A stretch of DNA of 64,000 bases from an uncultured archaeon (GTDB lineage: Archaea; Asgardarchaeota; Thorarchaeia; Thorarchaeales; Thorarchaeaceae): contig CAZYLT010000001.1 of NCBI GenBank assembly GCA_964648855.1, positions 342,299 to 406,298 on the forward strand. Reading direction: 5' to 3'. This document shows, piece after piece, positions 4,647 to 57,086 of the stretch. Within the stretch, counting starts at the first letter, position 1. Each line of letters begins with the position of its first letter. Under the pieces are notes generated by a model, which was not told the DNA's origin, made no database searches, and saw nothing but the letters and a program-made list of their open reading frames with translations. The position numbers and the translations under genes are program-made.

Positions 4647-4690
4647 AGAGAGTCTAAATCCTCAGAGAGCACGTCAGAGGAGTATTGGCA

Positions 4691-6806: not shown

Positions 6807-6810
6807 TAGC

Positions 6811-9478: not shown

Positions 9479-9526
9479 TAGCAAGAGATATAGTTGCCAA
9501 TCGCACACATTCTTTTTGTGTCCACT

Positions 9527-13329: not shown

Positions 13330-13468
13330 GCGTGTCACCAAGCCCGTCGGATAAGTTCAAGCAAAAAAGCATTTGGGAATCGGGGGTTTAGTCGAAAAAT
13401 GATGTCAGATAGGCAAAAAAGAGACGCGAATTGCACATCTGGTCATTTCTTGTTCCAAGCAGCTAGGG

Positions 13469-14404: not shown

Positions 14405-14415
14405 GTTGAATCCTC

Positions 14416-16011: not shown

Positions 16012-16295
16012 TTTTCCTACACCAGTGAAAGTAAACTTTTGATTAGTTGTTCCAATCAGTGCAAGTATTGACTGATAAAATGCACCGTATGGCTGTAGAG
16101 GCGGTTTGGTCAATCATGGTTGTGTCAGAAATGCACTCTTTTACAAAAGGTCTTGGCAATTATTACTGAAAAAAAGATGAGGCAGGGTGTTTATCCGCCT
16201 ATTGGGCTGAGAAATATGAATAGGCTTCCTCTCGAGGCACTGCCAGATGCATTGCCAGATGAAATTGATGTCGAAAAATATGTGATTTGCACGTA

Positions 16296-18554: not shown

Positions 18555-18864
18555 ATATCTGTATAATCTACACTATAGGGCTTTTGATAGATTCATTTCT
18601 AAGGCGTCTACTTCTGGTTGGGAAAAGATACGAGTACATAGAATCCTTCAAGTCTGTTTATCGAACAGACGCATGCCAACGTATTTTACATTTTCATGAC
18701 ATAAAAAGTGCCAGGTGCGTTTCATCTTGGATATCAAAGGACTTGGCATTATTCTCGTGTTAGTTCTAGCAATTAGCTCTCCCGGGCCTATTGTCTATCC
18801 TAGATACCAATTCCCATAATTCTCATCATAATCTTGCTAAGGAGAAAGCATGCTTAACCTAGAA

Positions 18865-19989
18865 TTAGTAGTTAAAATCTATCATGAATTCAGATGAGAT
18901 TCTCCATGACTTTGATTTCTCGTCAAATGTTTCAGGCCATATTCCATAGACCTCAGTGTTCTCATAGTCAACCATAGAAACCATAAGGTCGGAGCTATTG
19001 CCATGAACGTACTCTAATACACGCGACATGTGAGAAGGTGGCAATCTCAGGTACCAGAACAAGAATTCATCCGCAATTTTCAGTGTTGACCTGAAGGGAA
19101 TAGGATTGGAAAGCATCTTCGCCTGTAGCTCCAAAGCAAATCTCTGTTCCACATTAGCGGTAAGAATCACATTGCTATAGAGATCAAATGCCTCTGGGTC
19201 TATGAAGACATGATATCCTTGTATGAAGTGATCCTGCAATAACTTTAGTCGACGAGAGAATTCCTGTGATGAGAATTCTATACCTCTTTTGGATAATTTG
19301 TCAATTATCGCCTTCTGCTTTCTTCGAGCTCCATGAACCAGGTCGCTGAGAATATACATATCGTTCTTGGAAAGCAAGTCCAGCCTTGGAACGCTTTGCC
19401 TAGGTTTCTTCACAGACGGAATCTCGATTGTGGATTCAATCCAAGAAGACCAATCAAAACCCCATGTGAAAGAATTGTTGTCCCAATGTTCTAATCGGGC
19501 TATACTAAAGATTGGCGCCGTGTTGGTAGTTGGCAGTATCCAAAAACTATCTAGGTGATTCTCATCGACCTTTGACTCAAGCAGAGTCCTTAGCTGATTC
19601 TGAGAGCCAAGCGGAATACGGAATTGTGCGAATAGTCCCGGAAAACCTCCATAGGATCGTGCACGATATTTCGTGTAGGGATGTGCATCACAGAGCTGCT
19701 CCAAATTCCTAATGGAATCGTAATTATCCGTCTTGAGGAATACCTCAACTGTATAGAGTGCTAAAGCTGCTTCATCAAATTCTGGCACAACTCTGAAGAA
19801 CTTCTTTGGAGAGTCATTTGATTTACCATCCAGCCACTTCAGGTATTTGGACACGGTCGAGCGAGAGAAATCTACTCGGTGAGACAAGTCCTTGGTTGTC
19901 TCTAATGGTCCTTCCTGTAGTGCCAGCAGCAGGCTCAAATGCTTACCTGTCAGTCTGAATGTCTCCAATAAATTACCCTCTGAAATCAA
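18865..19989 (-). CDS. Hypothetical protein with an N-terminal winged-helix DNA-binding domain and a possible second wH around residue 215
   Basis: LTGKHLSLLLALQEGPLETTKDLSHRVDFSRSTVSKYLKWL is HTH-like. The second helix-rich segment is MYILSDLVHGARRKQKAIIDKLSKRGIEFSSQEFSRRLKLL. No enzymatic motif. TTG start. Confidence 0.5.
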   Translation of the reverse strand: MISEGNLLETFRLTGKHLSLLLALQEGPLETTKDLSHRVDFSRSTVSKYLKWLDGKSNDSPKKFFRVVPEFDEAALALYTVEVFLKTDNYDSIRNLEQLCDAHPYTKYRARSYGGFPGLFAQFRIPLGSQNQLRTLLESKVDENHLDSFWILPTTNTAPIFSIARLEHWDNNSFTWGFDWSSWIESTIEIPSVKKPRQSVPRLDLLSKNDMYILSDLVHGARRKQKAIIDKLSKRGIEFSSQEFSRRLKLLQDHFIQGYHVFIDPEAFDLYSNVILTANVEQRFALELQAKMLSNPIPFRSTLKIADEFLFWYLRLPPSHMSRVLEYVHGNSSDLMVSMVDYENTEVYGIWPETFDEKSKSWRISSEFMIDFNY

Positions 19990-20012
19990 GATTCTCAGTT
20001 TGTGATTTCACA

Positions 20013-20483
20013 TTATAGCACAGTGACCGTGATATGCGGGTCGCCTGCTCCAGAACCGGTTGGTGGGTCGAAGTCATAGCTGTCTGTTGTATACCCATAG
20101 ACCGATCCGCCAAAAGCTAACGCATCAATCAAGACATTATACCAACCAGACTCCCACGCAGAATCAAACCAAGTCAGACGAATTCTGATTGAATCGAATT
20201 TGCCCACGAGTGTAACCATAGCCAATAACTCAGCGCCAGATGGCAGAGTAAGTGTGAAATAGAAGTCGGTCTTCTGTGGGCTCTTGTAGCCTTCAGTGAC
20301 TTCACAGAGATATTCTATTATTATGTCATCTTCTTGACCGTCGGCGTCAACATCGGCGTAGTATGCATTCTCTATAGTGACTTGGAATCTGGAACTGACA
20401 GCTGAAACCCCTTGAACCATTGATAGAAAAATCAATGGTAGCAATGCTAGTGCTAAGAGTCTTGCTTTGTTTCCATATTTCAT
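20013..20483 (-). CDS. Small secreted or exported protein of unknown function
   Basis: N-terminal signal peptide MKYGNKARLLALALLPLIFLSMVQGVSAVSS followed by a beta-rich ~125-aa domain. Directly downstream of the subtilase gene. Confidence 0.5.
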   Translation of the reverse strand: MKYGNKARLLALALLPLIFLSMVQGVSAVSSRFQVTIENAYYADVDADGQEDDIIIEYLCEVTEGYKSPQKTDFYFTLTLPSGAELLAMVTLVGKFDSIRIRLTWFDSAWESGWYNVLIDALAFGGSVYGYTTDSYDFDPPTGSGAGDPHITVTVL

Positions 20484-20559
20484 AGTTTGGGAAAATGTAA
20501 AGCGTCTTATATATGTCTTCGGAAATTAAAAAAAGAAGGGGGATGAGGGAGTTCCCTCA

Positions 20560-22563
20560 TCAAATTGTAAATGTTTCTGATGTTTCGACGTTGGCCGTGG
20601 CGTCGTAGGTATAACTACTATGAGCTACATTCGTGACGGTCACTGTATATGTGCCCTGGGGAGATCTCCCTAGGTCAAAAATGGCCACACCATTTGTTCC
20701 GGTGGTTGCAGTATAGGTACTGATGCTTCCGTCAGGATATTCCAAGTCTATGGTAACTTCCGCACCACTCACTGCATTTCCATTTGAGTCAACAACTGTA
20801 ATTTCAATTGTCAACCAAGCATGTGGACCTCGATAGGTCGCAGAGTACGAAATATCTGCAACATGCATGCTTCCGTCACTGCTTCCGCCATCATTACTTA
20901 CCGTAACTCCTACGCTATCTGAAGCAGTCTGACTGGCTGTGTCAGTGACTCGAGCGTTAATGGTATGGTCACCATCTGCTACACCTGTTGTGTCCCAGTC
21001 ATAGTAGTAATAACCATCCGAATCGACATTGTTAGTTATGTCAATCCAGTTCCCACCATCGATGTTCACTTCAACCGTGGAAACACCATTGTCGTCGCTG
21101 GCTGATACCTTGATCCTGTACGTACCACTCACTGTCTCTCCTTCTGTTGGAGCGTGAATTGATGCAGTTGGTGGGTTGTCAGTGGGTTCAGTTCCGCCAC
21201 CAGTAACATAGTCCAAGGCGTCCTTTGCTTGTGCTATGCCCCAGCCGTATGTGTTGTCTTCTCCTTCCTCACCCATATCCATGGCTGTTGTCTTAAGTAC
21301 CTCTTTGACATTGAAGGAAGTTAGACCAGAGTCGGCTTGTCGAAGTAGTGCGCCAATTCCGGCGGCCATGGGCGTAGCCATAGAGGTTCCGCTGTAAGTA
21401 ACATATCCGCTTCCACTATTGGCCTCGGCTGCAGTTATGGATGAACCGGCAGCACAAATTTCGGGTTTTATTCTTCCATCACCAGTCGGACCCTCATTGC
21501 TGAAGCTTGAGTGGGTTCCGTCATCATTGACAGATCCTACTGTAATTGCGTAGCGTGATGCCGATGGACATCCTATGGTGTTATACCCATACAGACGTTC
21601 AGGGTGACCGTGATTGCCTGCAGCAACAAAGAGAGCAATGTCGTTCTCCATTATGGAGTCTGCCATCAAACAAATCTCACCTGTACCATCGGATGAACTA
21701 GATGGGTTGGTTGATAGACTCATTGAGGCGATATTGATGTTGTAGGTTGTCCGGTAATCAATAATCCACTGCATGCCAGCAAGAACACCTTCAAGGGTTC
21801 CACCGCCGCCAGAGTCAAGGACCTTAACTCCGACTAGCTGAGCAGCATATGCAACTCCGCGATATCTGGAATCACCCTCTCCAGTCCCAGCAGCGATGCT
21901 TGAACAATGGGTTCCATGTCCATTATCATCGTATGCTACAACAGGAGTTGATAAGTCATCTTGACCGTTCACTACATCCTTGAAGGCGACGACTTTGTAG
22001 GTGTTGTATGGATCATCGTCATCCAGGTCAACATGGGTATTGTCGATTCCCGTGTCTAGGACAGCGATAACCATTCCTTCTCCGCGATAATCGTAGGATT
22101 GATATGCTTCAGGAACCTGCACAATGGGCAGTCCGCTATCAAGTGTTGCCTGTACCTCAATATTTGCATCAGATATTCTGATGACATCTTGTGAAGCACT
22201 GAGGTATTTCATGTTTCGTCGTGGGATATCTATCGATAGAGCCCCGATTGCGTCGTACCTGTATCTGACTTTTGCATCCAGCATGGGGAGCATATCTTCC
22301 AAGCTTGGAGAGGCAGTCACAATTACAGATACGCGTTCGTTTTGTTTCAGCTCTGCTAATTTTGGCTCAAATTCATCAACAATCTTGTTACCGTTCTGGT
22401 CCCAGCTATGGGTTACAATAGTGGTGCCCTTAGGTTGGGCTATAACTAGACCGGCAATCGCCACTGTCAAGAATAAGAACGCAAAGGAGCAAGCTAGATA
22501 CTTGTATCCGCGTTTTTTCAAATCTCTCACATCCAGAGGCCTTTCAAAATAGGCCTCAGGCAT
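20560..22563 (-). CDS. Secreted subtilisin-like serine protease (peptidase S8) with C-terminal Ig-like/beta-sandwich domains
   Basis: Catalytic triad motifs VIAVLDTGID (Asp), HGTHCSSIAAG (His) and GTSMATPMAAG (Ser). N-terminal signal/TM segment. The C-terminal ~230 aa are Thr/Ser/Gly-rich repeated beta strands. Track start GTG at 22584; ATG at 22563. Confidence 0.85.
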   Translation of the reverse strand: MPEAYFERPLDVRDLKKRGYKYLACSFAFLFLTVAIAGLVIAQPKGTTIVTHSWDQNGNKIVDEFEPKLAELKQNERVSVIVTASPSLEDMLPMLDAKVRYRYDAIGALSIDIPRRNMKYLSASQDVIRISDANIEVQATLDSGLPIVQVPEAYQSYDYRGEGMVIAVLDTGIDNTHVDLDDDDPYNTYKVVAFKDVVNGQDDLSTPVVAYDDNGHGTHCSSIAAGTGEGDSRYRGVAYAAQLVGVKVLDSGGGGTLEGVLAGMQWIIDYRTTYNINIASMSLSTNPSSSSDGTGEICLMADSIMENDIALFVAAGNHGHPERLYGYNTIGCPSASRYAITVGSVNDDGTHSSFSNEGPTGDGRIKPEICAAGSSITAAEANSGSGYVTYSGTSMATPMAAGIGALLRQADSGLTSFNVKEVLKTTAMDMGEEGEDNTYGWGIAQAKDALDYVTGGGTEPTDNPPTASIHAPTEGETVSGTYRIKVSASDDNGVSTVEVNIDGGNWIDITNNVDSDGYYYYDWDTTGVADGDHTINARVTDTASQTASDSVGVTVSNDGGSSDGSMHVADISYSATYRGPHAWLTIEITVVDSNGNAVSGAEVTIDLEYPDGSISTYTATTGTNGVAIFDLGRSPQGTYTVTVTNVAHSSYTYDATANVETSETFTI

Positions 22564-22708: not shown

Positions 22709-23299
22709 TCAGGTAGGCAGATGCAGAGCACCCACATCAGACGCGGATTGAATCCAAAAACAGACTCGAACAAGTACTTCCTCAAGAAAGCGAGGCCGGT
22801 CACTTGGCTTGGCATCCTTCGGCCACCGATTACGTCTGTACTCGTCGAACTTCTGGAATGTTCGCCCGTATTTGGTGGTCATCGGTATCTCGACGTAGCG
22901 ATCACATACTGTCGTGAGGGCACGGATAAGAGGCGCATATTCAAACTTGATCCGTAATAACCACTTCGTGATGGCACGGAAGAATGCGCGGTCATCGGTG
23001 CCTTCCCACGGAATATCCATCATCCCTTCGCGATCTTCACCACGAACCCTCTGGCTGTTGAAGTCGCAGTCGCTGCTGTGAGTGCAACGAGCTCTCACAA
23101 ACACCTTTTTGTCGGTAAACCACAGAACTACTCTATGGTCCCCCTTTTTCTGAAGAAGCTCTTTATGGTCGCCGGCAGGAAAGATCAACTCTATCGTTCC
23201 CGGGTCTTTGAATTTGAAATCCTTCTTGAAGTATAATTGCATGGCCCAGGTGATAGGAGGGATAGTATTTACTGGATAGAGCTCGCTTCGGTCAGTCAT
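22709..23299 (-). CDS. Hypothetical protein (196 aa), co-oriented and immediately downstream of the Rab-like GTPase
   Basis: ATG start, no recognisable motifs. Cys/His-containing segment RARCTHSSDCDFNSQ. 110-bp spacer to the GTPase gene. Confidence 0.5.
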   Translation of the reverse strand: MTDRSELYPVNTIPPITWAMQLYFKKDFKFKDPGTIELIFPAGDHKELLQKKGDHRVVLWFTDKKVFVRARCTHSSDCDFNSQRVRGEDREGMMDIPWEGTDDRAFFRAITKWLLRIKFEYAPLIRALTTVCDRYVEIPMTTKYGRTFQKFDEYRRNRWPKDAKPSDRPRFLEEVLVRVCFWIQSASDVGALHLPT

Positions 23300-23408: not shown

Positions 23409-23951
23409 TTATTCGCTTGAGCGTCTAGTACTAACGAGTGTCTTTCCAAGATTCTCGAAGATGTCAACGATACCCTCGCCCGTCTTTGCAGATGACTCCA
23501 CGTAGGGCATGCCGTGTGCATCAGCGAATTCCCTGCCCTCCTTTGGCTCAACCACACGGTCAGGCAAGTCCGTCTTGTTTGCAACTAGCACCAAGGGAAT
23601 CTTTTTCTTAATCGCCTTTTCCAATTCATTGAGCCACTCATCAAGCAGAAGGAATGTTCGGCGTCGGGTGACATCGAATACGAGCACGCCGCCGCTTGAA
23701 CCTCTATAGTACATTGGTCTCAAAATCTGAAAGCGGCTCTGCCCCGCCACGTCCCAGATTTGCAGCTTCACAGTCAGGTTTTCACGGCTCTCACGTATAT
23801 CGATATTCTTGACAGCGAACTGAGAGCCTATCGTTGTCTTGTAATCGGTACGGAAGAAGCCATGAGAGAAGCGAGTGACGATTGCAGTTTTTCCTACTGC
23901 ACCCTCTCCGAGAATGACCACTTTAAACAGGTAATCGTACGTACTGCTCAT
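23409..23951 (-). CDS. Small GTPase of the Ras superfamily (Rab/Arf-like, eukaryote-type)
   Basis: G1 GEGAVGKT, G2 YKTTIGSQF (switch I Thr), G3 WDVAGQSRF (DxxGQ), G4 VANKTDL (NKxD) and G5 ESSAKTGEG (SAK). ~180 aa from the ATG at 23951. Confidence 0.85.
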   Translation of the reverse strand: MSSTYDYLFKVVILGEGAVGKTAIVTRFSHGFFRTDYKTTIGSQFAVKNIDIRESRENLTVKLQIWDVAGQSRFQILRPMYYRGSSGGVLVFDVTRRRTFLLLDEWLNELEKAIKKKIPLVLVANKTDLPDRVVEPKEGREFADAHGMPYVESSAKTGEGIVDIFENLGKTLVSTRRSSE

Positions 23952-23996
23952 CAGATTCAATTCCGACTCTTGTTTTGAGTGAAACGGTTGGGCTCA

Positions 23997-24916: not shown

Positions 24917-25042
24917 GTGATGACCTCGTGTCTTTTCCCATAGAATACGAGCACTGCATATATTCGTTCTCTGGATAGTTGGCTGGGCTCATCGTCAGTT
25001 ACCTTTTTCTTTCAGTGGCGAGATGAAGGGCATGTGAAAAGA

Positions 25043-26422
25043 ATGGCAGAAAAATTGTTTGGAACAACGGGTATACGGAAAATATACGGCTCCGAATTCA
25101 CCCTAGATATGGCAATGAAGTTGGGGAGAGCACTAGGCACATATCTCCAAACAGGAAGAATACTCATTGCAAGGGACACCCGAACAACAGGGAAAATGGT
25201 TGTCGATGCATTCGTATCAGGGGTACTCTCAACGGGCATCGATGTGACCCGGCTGGGTATAGTTCCAACACCGACATTGGCATACCTGACCAGAAAAAGG
25301 GTATTTGATGCGGGCGTGATGGTAACCGCGTCCCATAACCCCCCAGAATATACAGGCATAAAATTTTGGCATAAGGATAGCATGGGATACACTTCAGAGA
25401 TGGAGAGAGAAATCGAGAGGCTCTACCAATCACAAGAATTTCAGGTAGCACCGTGGAACGAGCTGGGTCAAGAAGCTGTCTTGGAGGATGCAGTAGAGGA
25501 ACATATCTCTGACATCATCGACCACTGTGATAGTGAAGCCATCAGTCGCCAAGAGTTCAAGGTCATTGTCGATCCCGGAAATGGAGCAGCATGTGTCTTG
25601 ACTCCGTATCTTATGCGGAAACTAGGTTGTAAGGTTATCACAATCAATGGGCAGCCAGATGGGCATTTTCCTGGAAGAAGGTCTGAACCAGAAGAGGAAA
25701 CTCTACAAGACCTCATTCATATGGTGAAAAAGCAGGGAGCGGATCTGGGAATCGCTCATGATGGAGATTCCGATCGAGGAGTATTTGTGACTGAAACAGG
25801 AGAAGTCGTAAGAGGAGACAGAACCATTGCCCTACTTGCAAAGACACTCTTGAAGAATGCCAAAACGGGCGTAGTTGTAACCACAGTGGATAGTTCAAAG
25901 GTTCTCGACGAAACGGTTCAGAGGGCTGGCGGGGATATTGTTCGGACACCAGTTGGCGACATCCAGGTTGCAGTCAAGCTAAAGGAGCTTGAAGGTATTA
26001 TGGGAGGAGAAGCCTGTGGAGTGTTCATATTTCCTTCATTTCACATTGCACCAGAGCCTTTCCTGGCTGCTTGCAAGATACTGGAGATGATGGCTCACGT
26101 CGGAAAAAGCTTTGGCGAGCTGGTTTCTGAGATTCCGGTATACCCGTTATTGAAAACAAAGCTTGAGGTGGCGAATAATAGGAAGGAACCGGTCATGAAG
26201 GAACTCTCAAAGATGTTACCAAAAAAGATAGATGGAATTCAAGATGTGATTACGGTAGATGGCATCGGATTAGTCCTAGATGATGGGTGGATTCTTGTAA
26301 GACCATCAGGAACGGAACCGGTCATAAGGATAACTTGCGAAGCATCAACTGACGACCGAGCTCACGAAGTACTGGACTCATGTAAGCGAGTTGTAAAGAA
26401 GACAATCTCTTCCCAGAAATAA
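25043..26422 (+). CDS. Phosphohexomutase family enzyme (archaeal phosphoglucosamine / phosphomannomutase / phosphoglucomutase)
   Basis: GTTGIRK N-terminus, active-site TASHNP, and the DGDSDR metal-binding loop. ~459 aa from the ATG at 25043; the track start is GTG. Confidence 0.8.
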   Translation: MAEKLFGTTGIRKIYGSEFTLDMAMKLGRALGTYLQTGRILIARDTRTTGKMVVDAFVSGVLSTGIDVTRLGIVPTPTLAYLTRKRVFDAGVMVTASHNPPEYTGIKFWHKDSMGYTSEMEREIERLYQSQEFQVAPWNELGQEAVLEDAVEEHISDIIDHCDSEAISRQEFKVIVDPGNGAACVLTPYLMRKLGCKVITINGQPDGHFPGRRSEPEEETLQDLIHMVKKQGADLGIAHDGDSDRGVFVTETGEVVRGDRTIALLAKTLLKNAKTGVVVTTVDSSKVLDETVQRAGGDIVRTPVGDIQVAVKLKELEGIMGGEACGVFIFPSFHIAPEPFLAACKILEMMAHVGKSFGELVSEIPVYPLLKTKLEVANNRKEPVMKELSKMLPKKIDGIQDVITVDGIGLVLDDGWILVRPSGTEPVIRITCEASTDDRAHEVLDSCKRVVKKTISSQK

Positions 26423-26505: not shown

Positions 26506-26937
26506 ATGGCTGAAGACGATGACGATTTCATCATGGAGGAATTTGAATGGGCCCTAAAGGACCCAACAGAAGAAAAGCTACGTCAACTCGGTGAAGTAGT
26601 CAGCATCATAACAGGAAAAATTGTTGATGCCATAGGTCAACTTGAAAACCGTATTAGTTCGTTAGAAGAAAATGTCAGTAACATGAGTTCTCGCATATCA
26701 TCTCTAAGCTCGAGAGCGAGCAGTGCTAGTGCAGAACCCGCTGCGGAAGCAGTAGAATCCACACCCAGTCCACCAACATCGCCAAGCGTTGGTGGTGCCC
26801 CAGAACCAGCATCAGCCAGTGCAGGAGGCGGAGGGCCACCTGGAGGCGGAGGTGGTGGAATGACAATGATGGGGGAGCTCAAAGCATTGTTGGCGGCGAG
26901 AAGAAAGAAAGTAGAAGGCGGAGAAAAACAGGCTTAG
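26506..26937 (+). CDS. Small acidic coiled-coil protein with a Ser/Pro/Gly-rich linker and a C-terminal basic amphipathic helix (function unknown)
   Basis: 143 aa. The N-terminal ~75 aa form a heptad-like helix. Then SSRISSLSSRASSASAEPAAEAVESTPSPPTSPSVGGAPEPASASAGGGGPPGGGGGG, then MTMMGELKALLAARRKKVEGGEKQA. TATA-like TTTATAG lies ~45 nt upstream. Confidence 0.5.
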   Translation: MAEDDDDFIMEEFEWALKDPTEEKLRQLGEVVSIITGKIVDAIGQLENRISSLEENVSNMSSRISSLSSRASSASAEPAAEAVESTPSPPTSPSVGGAPEPASASAGGGGPPGGGGGGMTMMGELKALLAARRKKVEGGEKQA

Positions 26938-27596
26938 GTCAATAATTTACGACTGTTCTTTTTGTAGAAAGGGCCTGCGTGGCGGGGCATAGAAACAGTG
27001 AACGCCTCTGCGCGCGAACAAGCGCCTTGGACGCCTCTCAGTTTTGTTCGAGCATCATAGAAAGTCAAGTAGAAGCCTTCAGCTTTTGAAATCTGAGATT
27101 CGTGTTTCTTCAGTGCCAATAAGCTCTCATCGTAGGACGTGGTGATATCCACTATAAAGTGAGGATGTGAATGGAGAGTGTTGATTTCCATCTGTAGCAT
27201 GCGATCCACTCTATGAGGTTCTTCGAACATTGTCTTGTGCGATGCCCATTCGATAGATTCCATAACAAGCTCCGCACAGATTCTGTGGTTACGATTGTAG
27301 TCCTCGCTAGAGTGCGTGATTATGATATCGGGACGGGACTGGAGGATAACCTCAATTACTGAGTCGGAAAGACTTCTATCGATTTCAAAGTCCCCTCGAT
27401 TGGAAGGGTATATCTTTCTGACACCCAATATGTCACAAGCATTTGCAAGCTCCTCATTTCGTTTGTCATTTCCGGTTAAGCAAAGGACATCTACTGGAAT
27501 GTCCGCCTTGGTATGATTTCTGATTGTCCCTCCAGCACCAAGACATTCGTCATCGGGATGTGCGGTAATCACAAGAATAGAATCCAAATCTGCCAT
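26934..27596 (-). CDS. bshB: PIG-L / LmbE-family N-acetylglucosaminyl deacetylase (BshB/MshB-like)
   Basis: LVITAHPDDECLGAGG is the AHPDDE zinc-binding motif. ~220 aa from ATG ~27596. The track TTG at 27626 would overlap the divergent neighbour. Confidence 0.75.
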   Translation of the reverse strand: MADLDSILVITAHPDDECLGAGGTIRNHTKADIPVDVLCLTGNDKRNEELANACDILGVRKIYPSNRGDFEIDRSLSDSVIEVILQSRPDIIITHSSEDYNRNHRICAELVMESIEWASHKTMFEEPHRVDRMLQMEINTLHSHPHFIVDITTSYDESLLALKKHESQISKAEGFYLTFYDARTKLRGVQGACSRAEAFTVSMPRHAGPFYKKNSRKLLT

Positions 27597-27710
27597 ACAG
27601 GTTACTCGGAGATGGTCACTAATCAAGTTTTACCAATGCTTCAGGGGTATATTCCCGCACCAAGCACCTTAAAGGTAGGTAGTCTTGATACGATACAAGA
27701 GTTGACAAGG

Positions 27711-28874
27711 GTGAAAATTGGAGTCAATCTATATCCTTCAGTCGGTGGTTCAGGATATCTTGCCACTCGACTAGGCCAGCATCTAGTTGAGAGAGGACAC
27801 ATAATCCATTTCATAACATATCAAAGACCTTTCTCATTAGTGTGGGAAGATACGCGAGGAGCATTTGTGGACCTAGTTGACACTATCGACTATCCATTAT
27901 TCAAGGACATCTGCCCGCCCTATTCAATGGCGCTAGCTTCGAAGATTGTCCAAGTTTCTCAAAACTCCCAACTGGATTTGATTCATTCACACTATGCCAT
28001 CCCACATGCACTATCTGCATACATGGCAAGAGAAATTGTGGGGATACCTTATGTCATTACGATGCATGGCTCAGATGTACACTCGTTAGGTCTGGACCCA
28101 GCATATCAACCAGTAGTAAAACACACAGTTCAACAAGCAAGTGCGGTCACCACGGTAGCGGCCTTTCTCCGAGATAGTGCTTACGAAAAGTTAGGTATTG
28201 ATAGAGAAATTCATGTTATTCCAAATTTCATTGATGTTGAGAAGTACAAACGGAAAGAGGGTATACGACTTGTAGTTGAAAGCGGTTGTGTATCGGTGAG
28301 AACAGAGGAGGATGCCGAGGCCATCAACCCAGATCAGAGAGTCCTACTCCATGTTTCAAACTTCAGGAAAGTCAAGCGAGTCGTTGAACTGATAGAAATA
28401 ATGAAAATGGTAGTGGATGAGAAGCCAGATACCCGGCTTGTTCTCGTAGGAGATGGACCAAAGAGAGTAGAGGTTGAGCGTAAGATAGAGGAGCTAGATC
28501 TTTGCCAAAAGGTACACCTTCTAGGAATCAGAAGCAATGTACATGAAATCATGTGTTCATCTGATATGCTCTTGATGAATTCCTTGCAGGAAGGGATGCC
28601 ACTTGTTATCCTAGAGGCCATGGCATCGCAATTACCTGTTGTTACGACACCAGCTGGTGGAATACCGGAATTAGTAAGACCCGGAAAGGATGGGTGGGTA
28701 ACTGAAGGTTATGAAAAGGAAGAATTTGCTCATGCGATTCTAACCCTTCTTGATGATGACGCAAAACTGAAGAAATTTGGACATACTGGATGGAAGAGAG
28801 TCAAGGAGAAATTCTCAGCAGACATAATTGTACCAAAATATGAACAGGTCTTCCAAGAAGCAGTTCAAAAATAG
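27711..28874 (+). CDS. bshA: GT4-family retaining glycosyltransferase resembling BshA/MshA (N-acetyl-alpha-D-glucosaminyl L-malate synthase-like). A PIG-A-like GlcNAc transferase is the alternative reading.
   Basis: N-terminus VKIGVNLYPSVGGSGYLATRLGQHLVERGHIIHFITYQRPFSL closely resembles the BshA start (KIGITCYPSVGGSG...HFIT) as I recall it. C-terminal EX7E motif EGMPLVILEAMASQLPVVTTPAGGIPE. The GTG at 27711 gives a BshA-like N-terminus; in-frame ATGs further upstream (27636, 27513) would overlap the divergent deacetylase gene. Confidence 0.75.
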   Translation: MKIGVNLYPSVGGSGYLATRLGQHLVERGHIIHFITYQRPFSLVWEDTRGAFVDLVDTIDYPLFKDICPPYSMALASKIVQVSQNSQLDLIHSHYAIPHALSAYMAREIVGIPYVITMHGSDVHSLGLDPAYQPVVKHTVQQASAVTTVAAFLRDSAYEKLGIDREIHVIPNFIDVEKYKRKEGIRLVVESGCVSVRTEEDAEAINPDQRVLLHVSNFRKVKRVVELIEIMKMVVDEKPDTRLVLVGDGPKRVEVERKIEELDLCQKVHLLGIRSNVHEIMCSSDMLLMNSLQEGMPLVILEAMASQLPVVTTPAGGIPELVRPGKDGWVTEGYEKEEFAHAILTLLDDDAKLKKFGHTGWKRVKEKFSADIIVPKYEQVFQEAVQK

Positions 28875-28885
28875 GAGAGTATTGA

Positions 28886-30604
28886 GTGACCAAGAGAAGC
28901 ATTACACAGGCATACTTGGACTATATTTGGAAGTCCAAACACGAGGAGTTGGCATCTGAACTCTACAACGACCCACCTATTTTGATGAACGACTTGAGAA
29001 AGCGCGCAGTCAATTTGAGAAAGACGTATGCTGAGCAAGACTGGCATACAGATGATAGGACTGAGAGATTGCAGAGGGCGTTGACAAGGATTAACCGTGA
29101 GCTAGGTTGTCTAAGTCCGAAAGTCAAGAAAAGCATTGAGAAACTACATGAGGGCGCTGTTGAGGCAGCTCATCAAAGCGTTGTATTAGGCGGCCCTTGC
29201 TATATTCTGAACAAGGCCATCACAGCAGAAAGATTGGCGGTCCTGAACTCGACCGAGCAGACATCTCTTGTCCCATTTTATTGTATTGCTGATTATGATA
29301 TAGTTCAGAGTGAGTTGACCCATACGAGAACGCCCTTGATGGGACCAAGTGGAAATATAGTGAGCATACCGGTTCCTGATGAATACGAGTTCTCACCTGT
29401 GAGTGTTGTGCCTTTACCCGAATATCATTGGTATGAGGAAGCGGAGGAGAGTATTAGAACGGGGTATAGCCCATTGTTCAAAGTACTTGAAGGAAATACA
29501 CGAAAGCTCTTTGACGAAAGGCTTGAATATGCACTTTCCATAACCAGACAAGCATTTCTTAACTCCGAAACTCTGGGGGAATGGGCACAAAGGATTATTG
29601 CAAGGATTGTGAACATTGAAGGAAACCTAGGACTACCTCTAGTTCCAGCTTCTGACGATGAGATACGAAAACTATGGGCGCTTGGCATGGAATTTCTTCT
29701 CTCCAAAGAGATACGAGAGAATTTCGTTCAGATGTACGGTCAAGCCACGAAAAGAATTCAGAATAACGGGTTTGAGCCAGGTGCAGGAGGAAGGGATAGC
29801 GCGTATGTCCCATTCTTCTATGAATGCCAAACAGAATCATGTAATCGGGCTAGAACAGAGCTGTTCTATGAATTGGATGGGTCGAAAGCATTACTCAGAG
29901 GAGAATGTCCTCTTTGCAACGAAAAAATCCAATTAGAAGTCGATGCGGAAACTCCAGATCTATCAGACCAAGCTACGTTTCTATCACCCAGAGTTGATTC
30001 TCGACAATTTGCAGTCGATTCCTCGATCCCTATCATAGCTCATGCGGGAGGGCCGGGAGAGACTGCGTATTATGCGCAAGTCATACCGATTGCAAGAAAA
30101 TTGAAGATACCATTTCCTATGTTTGTGAAATACCCTCGTGTCTTTTTCAATACCCCATGGAGCGAAGATATGGCTAACCAGCTAAAGACAAGCGAGATTC
30201 CCGTGCTTCACAGAGGTGAGATGTTTCGGGCCATGGGACAAGTTACTCGAAATAGAAACAAAGAGAACTATGACGAGATGAATGGGGCAATCCAGGATCT
30301 TGCAGGAATCATTTGGACGACACATGATGAGCTGTTAGAATCTTTGCATAAACTTGAGAAGGAGATTGAGGAAACCGAGGAGCATGTAGAGGAAGACAGA
30401 CTAGAGCTGAAATTCAAAATTGAAACCTATCTGTCTTGGGCATATGGTCGGTATGCAAAGGGAAAGAATGCACAGGAGTCATCTTGGTCATGGATTGAAT
30501 GGGTACTAAATGCGGGACTTGGTGATTTATTTGGACCGTACGAGCGGGCCTATATGCAACAAATGAAGAATGGAGCAACGCTTTTTGTAAATTTCATGGT
30601 ATGA
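28886..30604 (+). CDS. Large conserved protein, candidate BshC-like enzyme (third gene of a bacillithiol-type pathway), with an internal Cys4 zinc-ribbon
   Basis: 572 aa with a GTG start 12 nt after the bshA-like stop. Segments SVVLGGPCYIL, VPFYCIADYD and IIAHAGGPGETAYYAQV resemble conserved blocks of BshC (YllA) as I recall them (VVGGQQAGLLTGP / IPIFWVAGEDHD / IAGPGE). The memory-based match is uncertain. Zinc-ribbon is CQTESC ... CPLC. The C-terminal ~130 aa are coiled-coil-like. Confidence 0.45.
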   Translation: MTKRSITQAYLDYIWKSKHEELASELYNDPPILMNDLRKRAVNLRKTYAEQDWHTDDRTERLQRALTRINRELGCLSPKVKKSIEKLHEGAVEAAHQSVVLGGPCYILNKAITAERLAVLNSTEQTSLVPFYCIADYDIVQSELTHTRTPLMGPSGNIVSIPVPDEYEFSPVSVVPLPEYHWYEEAEESIRTGYSPLFKVLEGNTRKLFDERLEYALSITRQAFLNSETLGEWAQRIIARIVNIEGNLGLPLVPASDDEIRKLWALGMEFLLSKEIRENFVQMYGQATKRIQNNGFEPGAGGRDSAYVPFFYECQTESCNRARTELFYELDGSKALLRGECPLCNEKIQLEVDAETPDLSDQATFLSPRVDSRQFAVDSSIPIIAHAGGPGETAYYAQVIPIARKLKIPFPMFVKYPRVFFNTPWSEDMANQLKTSEIPVLHRGEMFRAMGQVTRNRNKENYDEMNGAIQDLAGIIWTTHDELLESLHKLEKEIEETEEHVEEDRLELKFKIETYLSWAYGRYAKGKNAQESSWSWIEWVLNAGLGDLFGPYERAYMQQMKNGATLFVNFMV

Positions 30605-30616
30605 AAACAAGAACGG

Positions 30617-30653
30617 GGCACCAGAGCCGAGTTTCTGGTGCCTTTGCGTTTTT
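30617..30653. terminator. Bidirectional intrinsic-terminator-like hairpin with flanking T-tracts between convergent genes
   Basis: Stem GGCACCAGA, loop gccgagtt, stem TCTGGTGCC, followed by TTTGCGTTTTT. The minus strand also reads into a T-rich run. It lies between the stop at 30604 (+) and the stop at 30652 (-). Confidence 0.4.
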
Positions 30654-31926
30654 ACTCTAGCTGTTCTGATAGAAGATTGCCAAGCTTCTCAATACCTTCG
30701 GATATCACATCTGGTTCAGCATAGGAGTATCCTAACCTCATCGTGTTAGGCTGTGGTGAGGTTGGCTTTAACTCGTTCCCATTTTCCGTCAGGTCGTATC
30801 CGGTAATGGGGTAGAATGGGCCACCAGGAACATAGATAATATCATTTGGGAGCGCTACATCCATCATGAATTTCTTGCTATCAAAATCGGGTTTCTCGCT
30901 TTCCCACCAGATGAAGAAGCCACCTGTGGGATCAGTTCTCTTGCCAGTGGGGAATGATGAGTCTATTGCTTTTGCCATTGCTTTGTATCGCTTTTCGTAC
31001 TCGGGAATTGCGACCTTCATGGCCTCGTCAATGTAGTTCATGTAGTACTCGTTCAAGATTCGCTGAACTAAGGTGGACGTACATAGGTCAAGGTAGCCTT
31101 TATCCTTCAGAACTTGTTCTCGAACATTGGTTGGCATCACAGAATATCCGACTCTAAGAACGGCAGCCTCTTTGCTTGTAGTTGCAAGGTATGCTACTCT
31201 CGTGTTCTCTTTATCAAGTGTCTTAATCGCCTTTGGATTCTCTTTGAATTGAATTTCGGCGTAAGCGGAGTCTTCTATCAAGAGAATATCGTGGCTCTCG
31301 CAGATGTCAAATAGAGCCCTCCGACGTTTCATCGGGATTGTAGTACCCTTTGGATTATCTGAATCGGGAACAACATAGAGGATATCAGGAACTTTACCAA
31401 ACTTGATTTTTGAAACATGAACCGCTTTCTCAACATATTCAGGAATCATACCATCAAGGTCTGTCGGTACAGTTATGATACGCCCGCCAAGCTTGACAGC
31501 AGGCACTAGGAATCCAAGGTAAGCCGGGGACGGAGTGATTATTACATCACCAGGGTCAATGAGAGTATCGAGGAGCGCATAAAGCGCCTGTTGTGAGCCA
31601 TTTGTAATGGATATTTGTTCCCATTCTCCATCATCACAATCAATAGGTATTCCACGAACCTCACATAGTCTCTGAGCAAGCGTGTTTATAAACCAAGGCT
31701 GACCACCTGTTGGCCCGTAGTTAAAATCCTCTAGTGCCATCTTTGGATTTTCTTTGTACCTTTCGCTCAAATCGGCCATAATATCAGCGAAGATATCTGT
31801 GGGAATTATGCCGGGTTTGCCGCCAGCATAATAATAATCCACATGATACTCCAAGAGAGCTCGGATTTGAGATTCTTCGATAAACGAAGTCCAACTCGAA
31901 AAACTATATCCATCTTTATCTGCCAT
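30652..31926 (-). CDS. PLP-dependent aminotransferase, class I/II (fold type I)
   Basis: 424 aa. TSKEAA contains the probable PLP-lysine in the SxK context, and the overall length and layout match AAT-like aminotransferases. ATG start. Confidence 0.75.
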   Translation of the reverse strand: MADKDGYSFSSWTSFIEESQIRALLEYHVDYYYAGGKPGIIPTDIFADIMADLSERYKENPKMALEDFNYGPTGGQPWFINTLAQRLCEVRGIPIDCDDGEWEQISITNGSQQALYALLDTLIDPGDVIITPSPAYLGFLVPAVKLGGRIITVPTDLDGMIPEYVEKAVHVSKIKFGKVPDILYVVPDSDNPKGTTIPMKRRRALFDICESHDILLIEDSAYAEIQFKENPKAIKTLDKENTRVAYLATTSKEAAVLRVGYSVMPTNVREQVLKDKGYLDLCTSTLVQRILNEYYMNYIDEAMKVAIPEYEKRYKAMAKAIDSSFPTGKRTDPTGGFFIWWESEKPDFDSKKFMMDVALPNDIIYVPGGPFYPITGYDLTENGNELKPTSPQPNTMRLGYSYAEPDVISEGIEKLGNLLSEQLE

Positions 31927-35333: not shown

Positions 35334-37502
35334 CTAGGATAAGGATCGAAGTCGGTTTGCGAGATTCATGATTGCCTTCTTCTCAGGACTGACCAATGCA
35401 ATAGCTACACATGCATATGATGGAGTTGTTGCTGCAGATATTGAAGCACGAGCGTTCATTGACCCCATGAGGATATAGGAAAACGAATCGTCTTGGGGAG
35501 CCCTAATGATATCGAATCCCGCAGTTTTGAGTATAGACACTACACGCTCTAGCAAGGTCTTCGCATCAAGGTGTTTACTAACAATAGCAATGGAGTCTCT
35601 TTCACGAATATCTGAACTGAATAGAAAGTCGTGCGAAGGGGGTGCATACAGAACCTTTCTCATCATGGCCTTCCTGAGAACTGAGGGAGAGAGATTTTTG
35701 AACGTACGAATTGACAATTTCAGCGAGCTCAAATCATAGCCAGGCAGTTCCTTTGTCAGATCGAATGGGCTATCCTCTAGTAGTGCCTTAGATTCTTCTT
35801 CATGGACATGAGAAGGCTGTACATGAGGTGGCTCTTCATCTGTTATAGTGTACTCTTGTAGTCGCTCCTCAAAGAGCCTCTCCACATAATTCTTCATCCA
35901 ATCATCAAGAACTGCCCAATCCTCTTTGCTCAATTTCAGAGGCGGCCGAGGAATATCAGGCAACTCAGGTGCTTCAGCAGATTCTTCTTCAACAGCCATT
36001 TCATCATCTACTTGGTCAGGGGCCAATGCCGCAGCTTGAAAGATTCCAGAGAGACGATCTGCGCCACCATGTTGTGACATTCTAGGACGCACCTGCATGA
36101 TGAAGGCACGTTTATTCTCTGTGCTTTGATCAAATACCAAAGCAACACCTCTCGGTAGGCTGCTGATGAATAACTTGTCCTTGAACTGATTTGGCATAAA
36201 TGCGGGAGCTCTCTGATGCAATGCTCGAATGTCATTGTCGTGGGATAGCGAATGAGAGAGCACGATATCAGCCTGAGAAATTGCTTCATCAGCTACGGCA
36301 GAGGGTTGTTGTGTACAGAGTATCAGACTACATCCGAATCGTCGACCAAGCTTGGCATATCCAACAATAGCATCCTTCGCAGGTGTATTTCCCGTCCGTG
36401 GAACAAGGGTGTGAGCCTCGTCGATAATGAGCCAAGTGGGAGGCAGTTCTTCTCTGGCACTAGTACCTTCCTCAGTCCAAGCCATGCGATAGGTGAGAAC
36501 CTGTCGAGAGAGCATGTTGGTAAGAATTGCAAGCACTGCTTCTGCATTAGCCCCGAGGGGAGCCACATCGATGATTGATATTTGCCCTCCAATAGCGAGG
36601 TCCTGAGCACTTGTCCCTCCAGTGTGAAATACACCGAGTCGATCCGCTCTACGGAGCCTTTGGATAAGTGCGGTCTTAGATGATGTTTGGTATAGCTCAT
36701 CAATTGCCGGATTGTTTTCTATGCAGTTGATCATGTCAGCTATACTGAAATCACGTTTCCGTTTCACTTGCTCGCCCGAGTCAAGAGTGTAACCTTTTCT
36801 CATACTCTCCAAGACGTCCCCAATTAGATTAGTCATTGAGGTACTGAGCTGTCCCCCTCGTTCTAATACGTAGCCCCATTCACTCGCCGTAAGTTCCCTA
36901 GGACTTATTGCAAGAGGCAGTAGTCGAGCTTTCTTTTTCACTTCATCAGGCAAAGACAAGTATGTCTTTCTAGGAATGTATACGGACACAGGGAAACTTC
37001 TTGCCTCTAGCCCCCACTTTTTCAGCAGCTGTTTTTGGTCAGCATTTTCTTCAACCATCTGTCGAAAGACATCGACCGTATCAACGATGACCCCCGCAAC
37101 TTGTATCTCATTCCGTTCCATTGAGAGAGCCAATGCCTCTGCAAAAGTACCAAGGGTATAGCTCTTGCCAGAACCTCTTTTGCCAGCAACAAAGACCACG
37201 TGCGGGCTCATGAGGTCCATGAGCACAGGCACACCAAATAGAGAGGATGAATCATCATCTGCTACCTCTGAAACCGCCCCAATCAACCCCAAGCCCGAAG
37301 AGCCAAACTTTTCATGAAACTTCGCAGAACGTCCAAGAATGACTCCATTATCAAGGTCGAGATGGAGGTCTAAGTCATGACCGACCCTTGGTGTGAAATC
37401 TACATCCGACGGTGAAAGAACTCGCTCTAATTCGAGCGGCTTTTTGTAATCTTCGCCGGCTTCAGCGTTGTCAGGCATATCGCTCGGATGTTCGCTATCC
37501 AT
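35334..37502 (-). CDS. HerA/FtsK-superfamily P-loop ATPase (DUF87/AAA_10-like) with N- and C-terminal extensions
   Basis: Walker A VFVAGKRGSGKSYTLG, Walker B WLIIDEAH, and CTQQPS (sensor/arginine-finger region typical of HerA/VirB4-like ATPases). ~722 aa from the ATG at 37502. The track ATG at 37574 would overlap divergent trmI. Confidence 0.65.
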   Translation of the reverse strand: MDSEHPSDMPDNAEAGEDYKKPLELERVLSPSDVDFTPRVGHDLDLHLDLDNGVILGRSAKFHEKFGSSGLGLIGAVSEVADDDSSSLFGVPVLMDLMSPHVVFVAGKRGSGKSYTLGTFAEALALSMERNEIQVAGVIVDTVDVFRQMVEENADQKQLLKKWGLEARSFPVSVYIPRKTYLSLPDEVKKKARLLPLAISPRELTASEWGYVLERGGQLSTSMTNLIGDVLESMRKGYTLDSGEQVKRKRDFSIADMINCIENNPAIDELYQTSSKTALIQRLRRADRLGVFHTGGTSAQDLAIGGQISIIDVAPLGANAEAVLAILTNMLSRQVLTYRMAWTEEGTSAREELPPTWLIIDEAHTLVPRTGNTPAKDAIVGYAKLGRRFGCSLILCTQQPSAVADEAISQADIVLSHSLSHDNDIRALHQRAPAFMPNQFKDKLFISSLPRGVALVFDQSTENKRAFIMQVRPRMSQHGGADRLSGIFQAAALAPDQVDDEMAVEEESAEAPELPDIPRPPLKLSKEDWAVLDDWMKNYVERLFEERLQEYTITDEEPPHVQPSHVHEEESKALLEDSPFDLTKELPGYDLSSLKLSIRTFKNLSPSVLRKAMMRKVLYAPPSHDFLFSSDIRERDSIAIVSKHLDAKTLLERVVSILKTAGFDIIRAPQDDSFSYILMGSMNARASISAATTPSYACVAIALVSPEKKAIMNLANRLRSLS

Positions 37503-37625
37503 TGTACTCCCTCTATGGCTCGTTTTTTCGTAGCCGAATAAAGGTTTGTAGTGGCAGGCTATAATCTGAATCATATCATCGTACCGTTAGCAAGACTCAA
37601 AACATCCTTTCCCGAATCATCACGT

Positions 37626-56974: not shown

Positions 56975-57086
56975 TCTTAATCCTCGCAATCGTGTAGCTT
57001 AAGGAGAAATAGAGCGAGAACATATGAGCGTTGTCTATAGGACACTATCACTTAGAACATACGAATGCAGAATCATCGAGAAAAGG

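Follow-up and report, generated by a model that had tools for sequence, protein, structure and literature searches.

A probable bacillithiol biosynthetic gene set in a Thorarchaeote, an Asgard archaeon

Does a three-gene locus in archaeal DNA encode the synthesis of bacillithiol (BSH)? In a stretch of 64,000 nucleotides (the window, from whose first letter all positions are counted), an initial annotation had described an LmbE/PIG-L deacetylase gene divergent from a GT4 glycosyltransferase gene with a large third gene close behind, and had preferred to read the three as a bacillithiol-type BshB/BshA/BshC set. Our reading of the open reading frames confirms this layout, with all three genes at the positions it had assigned. 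The bshB-like gene, encoding an LmbE/PIG-L zinc deacetylase, lies on the minus strand (26934-27596) and is separated by a divergent intergenic region of 114 bp (27597-27710) from bshA, the gene for a GT4 retaining glycosyltransferase on the plus strand (27711-28874). An archaeal-type bshC (28886-30604, plus strand, 572 aa, GTG start) follows after 11 nt (28875-28885), and not 12 nt as first counted. The host is an archaeon, and its nearest relatives are Candidatus Thorarchaeota MAGs; in the closest, TEKIR_14 (SDNP01000043.1), BshC is 86% identical and synteny is identical. Profile and fold matches of the third protein to BshC and the identity of the GT4 protein bear out the preferred reading, and we consider it likely that the cluster is the BSH biosynthetic gene set of this Thorarchaeote, its product most likely being bacillithiol or a close relative.

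The GT4 protein carries the clearest family signature. Its plus-strand reading frame opens at 27513 (453 aa), and comparison with the 390-aa orthologue at locus L001 makes the GTG at 27711 (VKIGVNLYPSVGGSG...HFIT) the most likely start, giving 387 aa. It scores 377.9 bits on the BshA equivalog model TIGR03999 (cutoff 273.7) and 66.8 bits on the MshA model (cutoff 462.5). The top PDB matches are BshA structures (2jjm, 3mbo, 5d00, 6n1x and 6d9t, 218-253 bits), about four times higher than all other GT4 structures in the search, which reach at most 61 bits. Scans with Pfam and NCBIfam models returned no PIG-A domain match, and the best lipid-type glycosyltransferase matches were the GlcN_PG_synth model at 63 bits and structures of PimB at about 54 bits. 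The protein thus groups with BshA, as had been proposed, and not with MshA, PIG-A or lipid glycosyltransferases. We assign it on these scores as a BshA orthologue, predicted to act as a UDP-GlcNAc:L-malate GlcNAc transferase.

The deacetylase is less sharply placed. Its minus-strand reading frame (26934-27626) encodes 230 aa from a TTG at 27626, with the ATG at 27596 the likely start, yielding 220 aa. The LmbE/PIG-L assignment and AHPDDE motif recorded earlier are borne out: the protein contains ITAHPDDECLG together with the downstream histidine and scores 77.4 bits on the Pfam PIG-L model. BshB1 is the best NCBIfam model (83.6 bits, cutoff 182.5), and the score lies below both BshB model cutoffs. 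The best PDB matches are the BshB structures 2ixd (52.7 bits) and 6p2t (45.6 bits), with diacetylchitobiose deacetylases (Dac) close behind at about 43 bits. The canonical HPDH motif reads NRNH, the first histidine being replaced by asparagine, in a DYNxNH form that is kept throughout Thorarchaeota. Judged by sequence, the deacetylase is BshB-like, though under the model cutoff.

The third protein was searched against BshC models and scored 70.4 bits on the BshC Pfam family PF10079 (gathering score 27) and 65.5 bits on the BshC equivalog TIGR03998, far under its cutoff of 265.8. Its AlphaFold model (pLDDT 94.9, pTM 0.93) shows a class-I-aaRS-like Rossmann domain followed by a C-terminal helical domain. 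The top Foldseek match in the PDB is BshC 4wbd over the full length (E 1.4e-19, TM 0.68/0.71), followed by the class I LysRS 1irx, and a profile of the archaeal BshC clade matches only 4wbd in the PDB (E 1.8e-21). The protein is about 17-21% identical to bacterial BshC, with Q97, G103, K110, D138, E143, R323, G389, E392 and Y395 invariant in archaeal and bacterial members alike. The GPGE segment noticed at the outset lies in the sequence GGPGETAYY. As modelled, the 572-aa protein is a divergent, full-length structural homologue of B. subtilis BshC.

Archaeal BshC proteins (Thor, Hod, Ran and Bathy) form a deep clade that stands well apart from bacterial BshC and has a zinc ribbon of four cysteines. 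In the Thorarchaeote this segment is encoded at 29825-29917 (plus strand; C314-x4-C319 ... C341-x2-C344). All four cysteines are invariant in 15 Thorarchaeota-type sequences; across 27 archaeal-type sequences, C314 and C341 never vary and conservation of C344 is at least 90%. Bacterial enzymes, including 4wbd, have gaps or no cysteine at these positions. In the AlphaFold model, strands 310-313, 323-331, 334-340 and 347-353 form two beta-hairpins that carry the cysteines, and Foldseek lists the NrdR zinc ribbon as a local match at rank 39. The four residues may bind zinc, and the ribbon is probably structural or a docking surface.

The arrangement is strongly conserved. About 70 species-level Thorarchaeota genomes have the genes in the same order, with 48-90% amino-acid identity, a recurrence that excludes chance, and synteny extends over the whole ±10 kb block in each Thorarchaeota locus that we examined. 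This type of BshC is also recurrently linked with BshA and BshB in several archaeal lineages. The GT4 protein beside archaeal-type BshC exceeds the BshA cutoff with 384 bits in Bathyarchaeia, 380 bits in Ranarchaeia and 371 bits in a Thorarchaeote of 52% identity, loci that represent three different gene arrangements. The Bathyarchaeia locus additionally encodes PIG-L, a thioredoxin-fold protein and two proteins of DinB_2, the family of bacillithiol and mycothiol S-transferases. Horizontal acquisition had been thought probable. A recent event is unsupported, since the cluster occurs throughout Thorarchaeota in conserved synteny, its G+C is like that of the flanking DNA and the BshC clade is deep and archaeal; an ancient transfer is possible.

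Several candidate expression signals accompany the genes. In the divergent region, an CCTTAAAGG element (27667-27675) precedes the bshA start by about 40 nt. Of the 56 Thorarchaeota loci compared, 33 have the exact sequence at the corresponding place, and many of the remaining ones have one-mismatch versions; it is probably the BRE/TATA promoter. A Shine-Dalgarno-like GGAG (28874-28877, plus strand) overlaps the bshA stop codon, lies 8 nt before the GTG of bshC and, together with the short spacer, suggests that bshA and bshC probably share one transcript. Between bshC and the convergent downstream gene, a stem-loop with a U-rich tail (GGCACCAGA...TCTGGTGCC, 30617-30653) folds at -23.3 kcal/mol (z = -3.97), which none of 200 shuffles equals, and probably serves as a bidirectional terminator.

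Adjoining genes include a Ras-family GTPase and an archaeal-type phosphoglucosamine mutase, GlmM (25034-26422, plus strand; TIGR03990 Arch_GlmM, 540.8 bits, cutoff 439). In the Thorarchaeota loci its position is always two genes upstream of bshB; as the whole block is syntenic there, this linkage is non-specific evidence, and GlmM is putatively associated with the cluster through supply of the UDP-GlcNAc precursor. The convergent gene (30652-31926, minus strand) encodes a class I/II aminotransferase (Pfam Aminotran_1_2) that in the PDB comes closest to P. horikoshii PH0207 and 1x0m and to the multiple-substrate aminotransferase of T. litoralis. Thorarchaeota loci having the complete gene show 69-92% identity, and on a Hodarchaeales contig otherwise without synteny an orthologue of 51% identity sits directly upstream of bshC. 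Its part in the pathway is uncertain.

In the proposed pathway, bshA-bshC would be transcribed from the conserved promoter within the divergent region shared with bshB, and GlmM next door would feed UDP-GlcNAc synthesis. BshA would transfer GlcNAc from UDP-GlcNAc to L-malate to form GlcNAc-malate. The LmbE-family enzyme would then use a zinc-activated water to strip the N-acetyl group, leaving GlcN-malate, and the archaeal-type BshC, a class-I-aminoacyl-tRNA-synthetase-like Rossmann enzyme, would add cysteine to the free amine. The product would be Cys-GlcN-malate, a low-molecular-weight redox thiol; we infer both this chemical identity and the malate acceptor. Even with the bacterial enzyme, the BshC reaction is yet to be reconstituted (PMC5790435), so the label 'cysteine ligase' derives from genetic work in Bacillus.

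The Firmicutes pathway employs these three enzyme families in the same chemical order (BshA, BshB1/BshB2 and BshC of B. subtilis, B. anthracis as well as S. aureus), with BshA a clear orthologue and BshC alike in fold over its full length and in nine invariant core residues. The Thorarchaeote differs in being an Asgard archaeon, in its low BshC identity and zinc ribbon, in its NRNH motif and in placing bshB divergently from a tight bshA-bshC pair, whereas B. subtilis has bshA and bshB1 together with mgsA in one operon and bshC at another site, beside panE (PMC5790435). Genes for Brx, YpdA and Bst are absent nearby: among the scanned window ORFs of at least 90 aa, we found no bacilliredoxin, YpdA-type reductase, DinB/Bst transferase or FosB. 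A 2020 review found just two YpdA homologues in archaea (PMC7278568). Mycothiol synthesis in Actinobacteria (MshA, MshB, MshC, MshD) shares the logic of GT4 GlcNAc transfer, LmbE-family deacetylation and joining of cysteine to the GlcN amine. The cluster nonetheless scores far below the MshA cutoff and only 25 on the MshB model, and it has no MshD acetyltransferase. MshC is a CysRS paralogue, of a different family from BshC, and its structure 3c8z is a weak fold match to the Thorarchaeote protein (E 0.27).

It is unlikely, though worth weighing, that the cluster makes a related but different Cys-aminosugar thiol, with another aglycone, a further modification or another amino acid added by BshC. 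The distance of BshC from its bacterial counterparts and its score under the equivalog cutoff would fit such a product, as would the altered HPDH motif. Two operons in sister archaeal lineages (L082, L086) encode a BshC-like protein that belongs to this archaeal-type clade (about 28% identity) next to a deacetylase scoring above the cutoff for BshB1 (196 bits, cutoff 182.5), but pair them with a GT2 rather than a BshA-type GT4 and with an Amidohydro_2 protein, neither of which the Thorarchaeote cluster has; the module is therefore chemically plastic in archaea. Derivatives also have a precedent in the N-methyl-BSH made by Chlorobi (PMC6282198). Yet BshA, which fixes both sugar and aglycone, is well above its equivalog cutoff and as BshA-like as bacterial enzymes, the core BshC residues are conserved, and the Thorarchaeote cluster itself lacks a methyltransferase or acetyltransferase.

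That the genes are co-located housekeeping sugar enzymes without a thiol product, for example a chitobiose/GlcNAc deacetylase beside a glycan synthase, is quite improbable. Dac structures score near BshB, and general synteny makes adjacency within Thorarchaeota non-specific. Outside Thorarchaeota, however, BshC and cutoff-passing BshA are linked in other gene orders and neighbourhoods (L002, L071, L084), and thiol-transferase-family genes accompany the Bathyarchaeia locus. We know of no role of BshC other than BSH synthesis. The alternative in the initial annotation, in which a PIG-A-like and PIG-L pair makes the GPI-anchor-like glycolipid GlcN-(archaetidyl)inositol and the 572-aa protein is a third, novel component, has a next to negligible chance and was rejected. 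The two systems share a GT4-superfamily transferase and a PIG-L-family deacetylase, whose sequence alone separates substrates poorly, but the GT4 protein is BshA-like by a wide margin (378 and 253 bits against models and structures) and the third protein is a BshC homologue by sequence and fold.

An intact three-gene set in an archaeon had been called noteworthy; the set is real, and its novelty was overstated. NCBI already names Thorarchaeota homologues 'bacillithiol biosynthesis BshC [Candidatus Thorarchaeota archaeon]', and a review lists BshA/BshC InterPro match counts in Asgard archaea (Rawat and Maupin-Furlow, 2020; PMC7278568). The locus belongs to exactly that set of annotated BshA/BshC homologues in Asgard and Bathyarchaeota MAGs. 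In the literature that we could search, neither the gene cluster nor its BshB partner, the zinc ribbon or the split of an archaeal BshC clade from bacterial BshC was found described, and BSH has never been detected in any archaeon (PMC7278568). The three-gene set is thus a solid and strongly conserved find rather than a new one, such Asgard genes having been flagged by databases and by the 2020 review, and both agree with the bacillithiol annotation reached here.

The window encodes a three-gene cluster for which bacillithiol (BSH) synthesis is the best-supported explanation and, in our judgment, a likely one. The three open reading frames (ORFs) recognized at 26934-30604 in the initial annotation are all present as described. 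The LmbE/PIG-L deacetylase ORF (bshB-like) occupies 26934-27626 on the reverse strand and most likely starts at an ATG at 27596, resulting in a protein of 220 aa versus 222 aa for the orthologue of a complete Thorarchaeota genome. The GT4 glycosyltransferase ORF (bshA) opens at 27513 on the forward strand with the conserved protein beginning at a GTG at 27711 (VKIGVNLYPSVGGSG), which yields 387 aa versus 390 aa for its orthologue. The gene for a 572-aa protein (bshC) follows on the same strand with a GTG start at 28886 preceded by a GGAG sequence and ends at 30604. The tight succession of bshA and bshC was described correctly, with the real gap after the GT4 stop codon being 11 nt instead of the reported 12 nt. 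A stem-loop with a U-rich tail (-23.3 kcal/mol, z = -3.97) is located between the end of bshC and a convergent aminotransferase gene. Around 35-40 nt 5' of the bshA start, at 27667-27675, lies the element CCTTAAAGG that is found exactly in 33 of 56 Thorarchaeota loci, and near-exact versions are present at the equivalent position in many of the remaining loci. This conserved element (ACCAnnnnCCTTAAAGG) probably represents a TATA/BRE promoter, while its partial palindrome could alternatively indicate a regulator binding site. A tRNA scan of the window found no tRNA genes.

The glycosyltransferase is BshA-like. It shows a two-domain GT-B architecture (Pfam Glyco_transf_4 and Glycos_transf_1) and passes the cutoff of the NCBIfam BshA equivalog (377.9 bits, cutoff 273.7), with the next-best family model at 145.9 bits and the MshA model at 66.8 bits (cutoff 462.5). 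Five BshA structures (2jjm, 3mbo, 5d00, 6n1x and 6d9t) align end to end at 218-253 bits while TarM, PimB, MshA and every other GT4 structure reach at most 61 bits. Scores for lipid-type GT4 models and structures lie at 54-63 bits compared with 253-378 bits for BshA, and no PIGA domain match is present among the Pfam hits. As the BshA model and structure scores far exceed those of MshA and all others and a PIG-A domain is absent, the main fork left by the initial annotation resolves to a BshA-like enzyme that is neither PIG-A-like nor MshA-like. Its predicted acceptor substrate is L-malate.

The 572-aa protein is predicted to adopt a full-length BshC fold comprising a Rossmann core, connective-peptide subdomains and a C-terminal helical domain. 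Its proposed BshC relationship holds at the level of the Pfam BshC N-terminal Rossmann-like domain (PF10079; 70.4 bits, gathering threshold 27, residues 23-414) but not at that of the NCBIfam BshC equivalog (TIGR03998), whose cutoff is far from being reached (65.5 vs 265.8 bits). Archaeal relatives score 30-66 bits on the same equivalog model. A phmmer search of the Protein Data Bank with the single sequence returned BshC as a marginal match (E = 0.003), and a profile of the archaeal sequence band returned Bacillus subtilis BshC (4wbd) as the sole match (E = 1.8e-21). The AlphaFold model built from a mixed alignment has a pLDDT of 94.9 and a pTM of 0.93, and its top Foldseek match is again 4wbd, covering the full length (E = 1.4e-19, TM 0.68/0.71, 602 alignment columns, 17% identity). 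Class I lysyl-tRNA synthetase is found in second place, consistent with the aminoacyl-tRNA synthetase-like nature of BshC. Nine residues are invariant in 24 archaeal and 10 bacterial BshC proteins (Q97, G103, K110, D138, E143, R323, G389, E392 and Y395), and the core BshC motifs (GQQ/HQ...GGP...K; D..E; GPGE..Y) are kept in the 572-aa protein.

Archaeal BshC proteins form a branch of their own that carries a putative zinc ribbon. When 1.84 billion cluster representatives were searched exhaustively, the matches fell into three tiers, consisting of a single Thorarchaeota cluster, full-length proteins with 24-37% identity (150-340 bits) whose named members come from Bathyarchaeota, Hodarchaeales, Ranarchaeia and Promethearchaeota, and, below a clear score gap, bacterial BshC at no more than 58 bits. 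No close bacterial relative of archaeal-type BshC appeared in the searches run. The only exact match to the 572-aa protein is found in an unannotated Logan assembly, and hundreds of relatives share 48-86% identity, nearly all organism-named ones being Candidatus Thorarchaeota with TEKIR_14 (SDNP01000043.1, 86%) as the closest named contig. Together with an archaeal-type GlmM and a Ras-family GTPase on the flanks of the cluster, these relatives identify the host as a Thorarchaeote, an Asgard archaeon. The archaeal clade possesses four cysteines (C314-x4-C319 ... C341-x2-C344) located on two beta-hairpins that are invariant among Thorarchaeota-type BshC and mostly retained throughout the clade, whereas bacterial BshC shows gaps or non-cysteine residues at these positions. 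The segment looks like a zinc ribbon and is common to the Thor-, Hod-, Ran- and Bathyarchaeia branch. Since all four ligands would be cysteines, we infer a structural or docking role instead of one in substrate binding.

The deacetylase is a member of the LmbE/PIG-L family and matches PF02585 (PIG-L) with 77.4 bits. The top-scoring models, BshB1 (83.6 bits, cutoff 182.5) and BshB2 (63.5 bits, cutoff 195.25), both stay below their cutoffs. The best structures are the BshB proteins 2ixd (52.7 bits) and 6p2t (45.6 bits), with archaeal diacetylchitobiose deacetylases (Dac) at about 43 bits. In MshB and BshB, AHPDD represents the metal-binding and catalytic motif, the downstream histidine binds metal as well and the first histidine of the HPDH block serves as a catalytic or transition-state-stabilizing residue. 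All Thorarchaeota orthologues retain the AHPDDE motif together with the second histidine of HPDH. The canonical HPDH itself is not kept, with NRNH found in the window and DYNxNH as the Thorarchaeota consensus, and the PIG-L neighbor of the Bathyarchaeia BshC retains HREH at this position. Due to the sub-cutoff scores, the close Dac scores and the altered HPDH block, BshB specificity is assigned mainly from genomic context, sequence alone being insufficient as proof.

The cluster is part of a conserved gene block in Thorarchaeota. We judged gene order wherever a contig was long enough and took identities from complete-gene matches; the underlying locus search used a Thorarchaeota-only alignment and returned almost exclusively Thorarchaeota. 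About 70 species-level genomes share the order hydrolase (-), GlmM (+), small protein (+), bshB (-), bshA (+) and bshC (+) followed by aminotransferase (-), OMP decarboxylase (-) and membrane protein (+), with bshB and bshA facing away from each other in all loci whose contigs reach far enough. Identities to the window proteins are 48-86% for BshC, 53-83% for BshB and 59-90% for BshA. The flanking GlmM is of the archaeal type (541 bits, cutoff 439). As the whole block is syntenic, its conservation indicates purifying selection and antiquity in the phylum and not specific linkage. Horizontal acquisition, considered probable in the initial annotation, finds no sign as a recent event because the G+C content of the cluster (0.44-0.46) equals that of its flanks, the cluster is universal and syntenic across Thorarchaeota and archaeal BshC forms a deep clade. 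An ancient transfer may have occurred.

Other conserved genes are found around the cluster. A 143-aa protein (26506-26937, +), whose N-terminal half is a coiled coil and whose C-terminal half is rich in Gly, Pro and Ala, has no family match, its stop codon overlaps that of bshB by 4 nt and it is found at the same position in every long-enough Thorarchaeota locus (33-90% identity). The cluster is also flanked by a Ras/Rab-like small GTPase (23409-23960, -; Ras 165 bits), an Asgard hallmark with 77-92% identity among Thorarchaeota loci, which lies beside a conserved 196-aa protein without family match (22709-23299, -). A HerA/DUF87-like ATPase of 746 aa with a long acidic C-terminal extension is located at 35334-37574 (-), and in the complete Thorarchaeota genome an ATPase of this family likewise lies on that side of bshC (18432-20606 of that locus).

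Specific linkage of BshC with BshA and BshB comes from lineages outside of Thorarchaeota. A Bathyarchaeia contig encodes PIG-L, Amidohydro_2, BshC, a thioredoxin-fold protein, a GT4 above the BshA cutoff (384 bits), a pair of DinB_2 proteins belonging to the bacillithiol/mycothiol S-transferase superfamily and a MerR regulator, with Amidohydro_2 positioned between PIG-L and BshC. In a Ranarchaeia contig, the convergent neighbor of BshC is a cutoff-passing BshA (380 bits). Two further archaeal contigs, L082 (4062-8417) and L086 (6249-10764), probably from other Asgard archaea, carry a four-gene operon of co-directional GT2, PIG-L, BshC-like and Amidohydro_2 genes in which PIG-L passes the BshB1 cutoff (196 bits) and the BshC-like protein shows about 28% identity. 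This variant operon may encode a different sugar thiol. Overall, four or more different gene arrangements combine archaeal-type BshC with BshA or BshB. Gene-linkage evidence of the same kind originally led to the identification of bacterial bshC (PMC5790435).

Recurrent neighbors of archaeal bshC comprise an aminotransferase in Thorarchaeota and Hodarchaeales and Amidohydro_2 in other lineages. The class I/II aminotransferase gene of the window (30652-31926, -) is convergent with bshC and adjoins it in all Thorarchaeota loci. A 51%-identical orthologue lies directly 5' of bshC in a Hodarchaeales contig (6600-7925 of L003) that otherwise lacks synteny, and the gene is absent beside bshC in the five other non-Thorarchaeota archaeal BshC contigs with listed neighbors. 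Its closest structures are Pyrococcus horikoshii PH0207 and multiple-substrate aminotransferases, resembling broad-specificity archaeal enzymes. The adjacency could reflect a functional partner or coincidence and is offered as a lead and not as a claim. A more far-reaching idea, which we regard as rather unlikely, is that the putative zinc ribbon of the old, separate archaeal BshC branch and its recurrent neighbor could mark the missing co-substrate or partner protein that has prevented BshC reconstitution.

In the proposed route to BSH, BshA would convert UDP-GlcNAc and L-malate to GlcNAc-malate, BshB would produce GlcN-malate and BshC would carry out the predicted cysteine addition yielding Cys-GlcN-malate, with the adjacent GlmM potentially feeding the UDP-GlcNAc supply. 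To our knowledge, the activated cysteine donor of the BshC reaction is not known, representing a long-standing gap. In vitro reconstitution of the reaction is lacking even for the bacterial enzyme (PMC5790435). The main rival is a BSH-like yet chemically distinct thiol, which would be favored by how far BshC and BshB have diverged and by the variant operons of sister lineages; we consider it improbable next to BSH itself, for which the glycosyltransferase scores speak. No BSH-using enzymes (Brx/DUF1094, YtxJ, YpdA, DinB/Bst or FosB) were detected among 51 chosen window ORFs of at least 90 aa, a selection without four short ORFs (91-307 aa). Archaea almost entirely lack YpdA-type reductases, and a sugar-cysteine thiol of the BSH or mycothiol type has never been measured in any archaeon (PMC7278568).

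Two further readings were rejected. A PIG-A/PIG-L pathway to a GlcN-inositol lipid is ruled out by the GT4 model and structure scores together with the missing PIGA domain. Mycothiol synthesis is ruled out by the MshA score of the glycosyltransferase (66.8 vs 462.5 bits) and by the weak fold matches of MshC structures to the 572-aa protein (E of at least 0.27); the window ORFs scanned also contained no CysRS-like ORF.

Several further genes lie at a greater distance from the cluster. A run at 4685-10618 (+) consisting of two radical-SAM genes, a fusion of an LplA/B catalytic domain with DUF116, an FAD-binding oxidoreductase and another lipoate-protein ligase that includes its C-terminal domain resembles an archaeal lipoylation cluster (LipS1/LipS2 type). 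A row of genes at 11767-16113 (-) for formiminotransferase-cyclodeaminase, FolD and formate-tetrahydrofolate ligase constitutes the tetrahydrofolate C1 branch that is typical of Thorarchaeota metabolism. A peptide deformylase homologue (57087-57590, -; 128 bits) is unusual for an archaeal genome because archaea normally do not formylate initiator methionine. A UPF0182-family membrane protein of 1008 aa is encoded at 53963-56989 (-), and another member (29-3046 of L084) lies about 1 kb 5' of the Ranarchaeia bshC-bshA pair, probably by coincidence.

Many relatives of the 572-aa protein already carry the NCBI name 'bacillithiol biosynthesis BshC [Candidatus Thorarchaeota archaeon]', and a review counted 39 archaeal InterPro hits for BshA and the same number for BshC, with Asgard archaea accounting for most of them (Rawat and Maupin-Furlow, 2020; PMC7278568). 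The locus consequently represents a further case of an already flagged kind, and the window adds detail and confidence to a genomic inference present in databases and review without introducing a new concept. The tight bshB<>bshA-bshC cluster, the archaeal clade of BshC proteins with a putative zinc ribbon and the change in the BshB motif appear to be undescribed in the searchable literature. With only nine invariant residues, a zinc ribbon and recurrent neighbors, the divergent archaeal BshC offers a small comparative handle on key residues and partners of the enzyme. Bacillithiol synthesis by Thorarchaeota would, if real, extend the BSH scaffold across both prokaryotic domains and give Asgard archaea a defined cytoplasmic redox buffer, with implications for the ways in which these relatives of eukaryotes, most of them anaerobic, handle oxidants and electrophiles.
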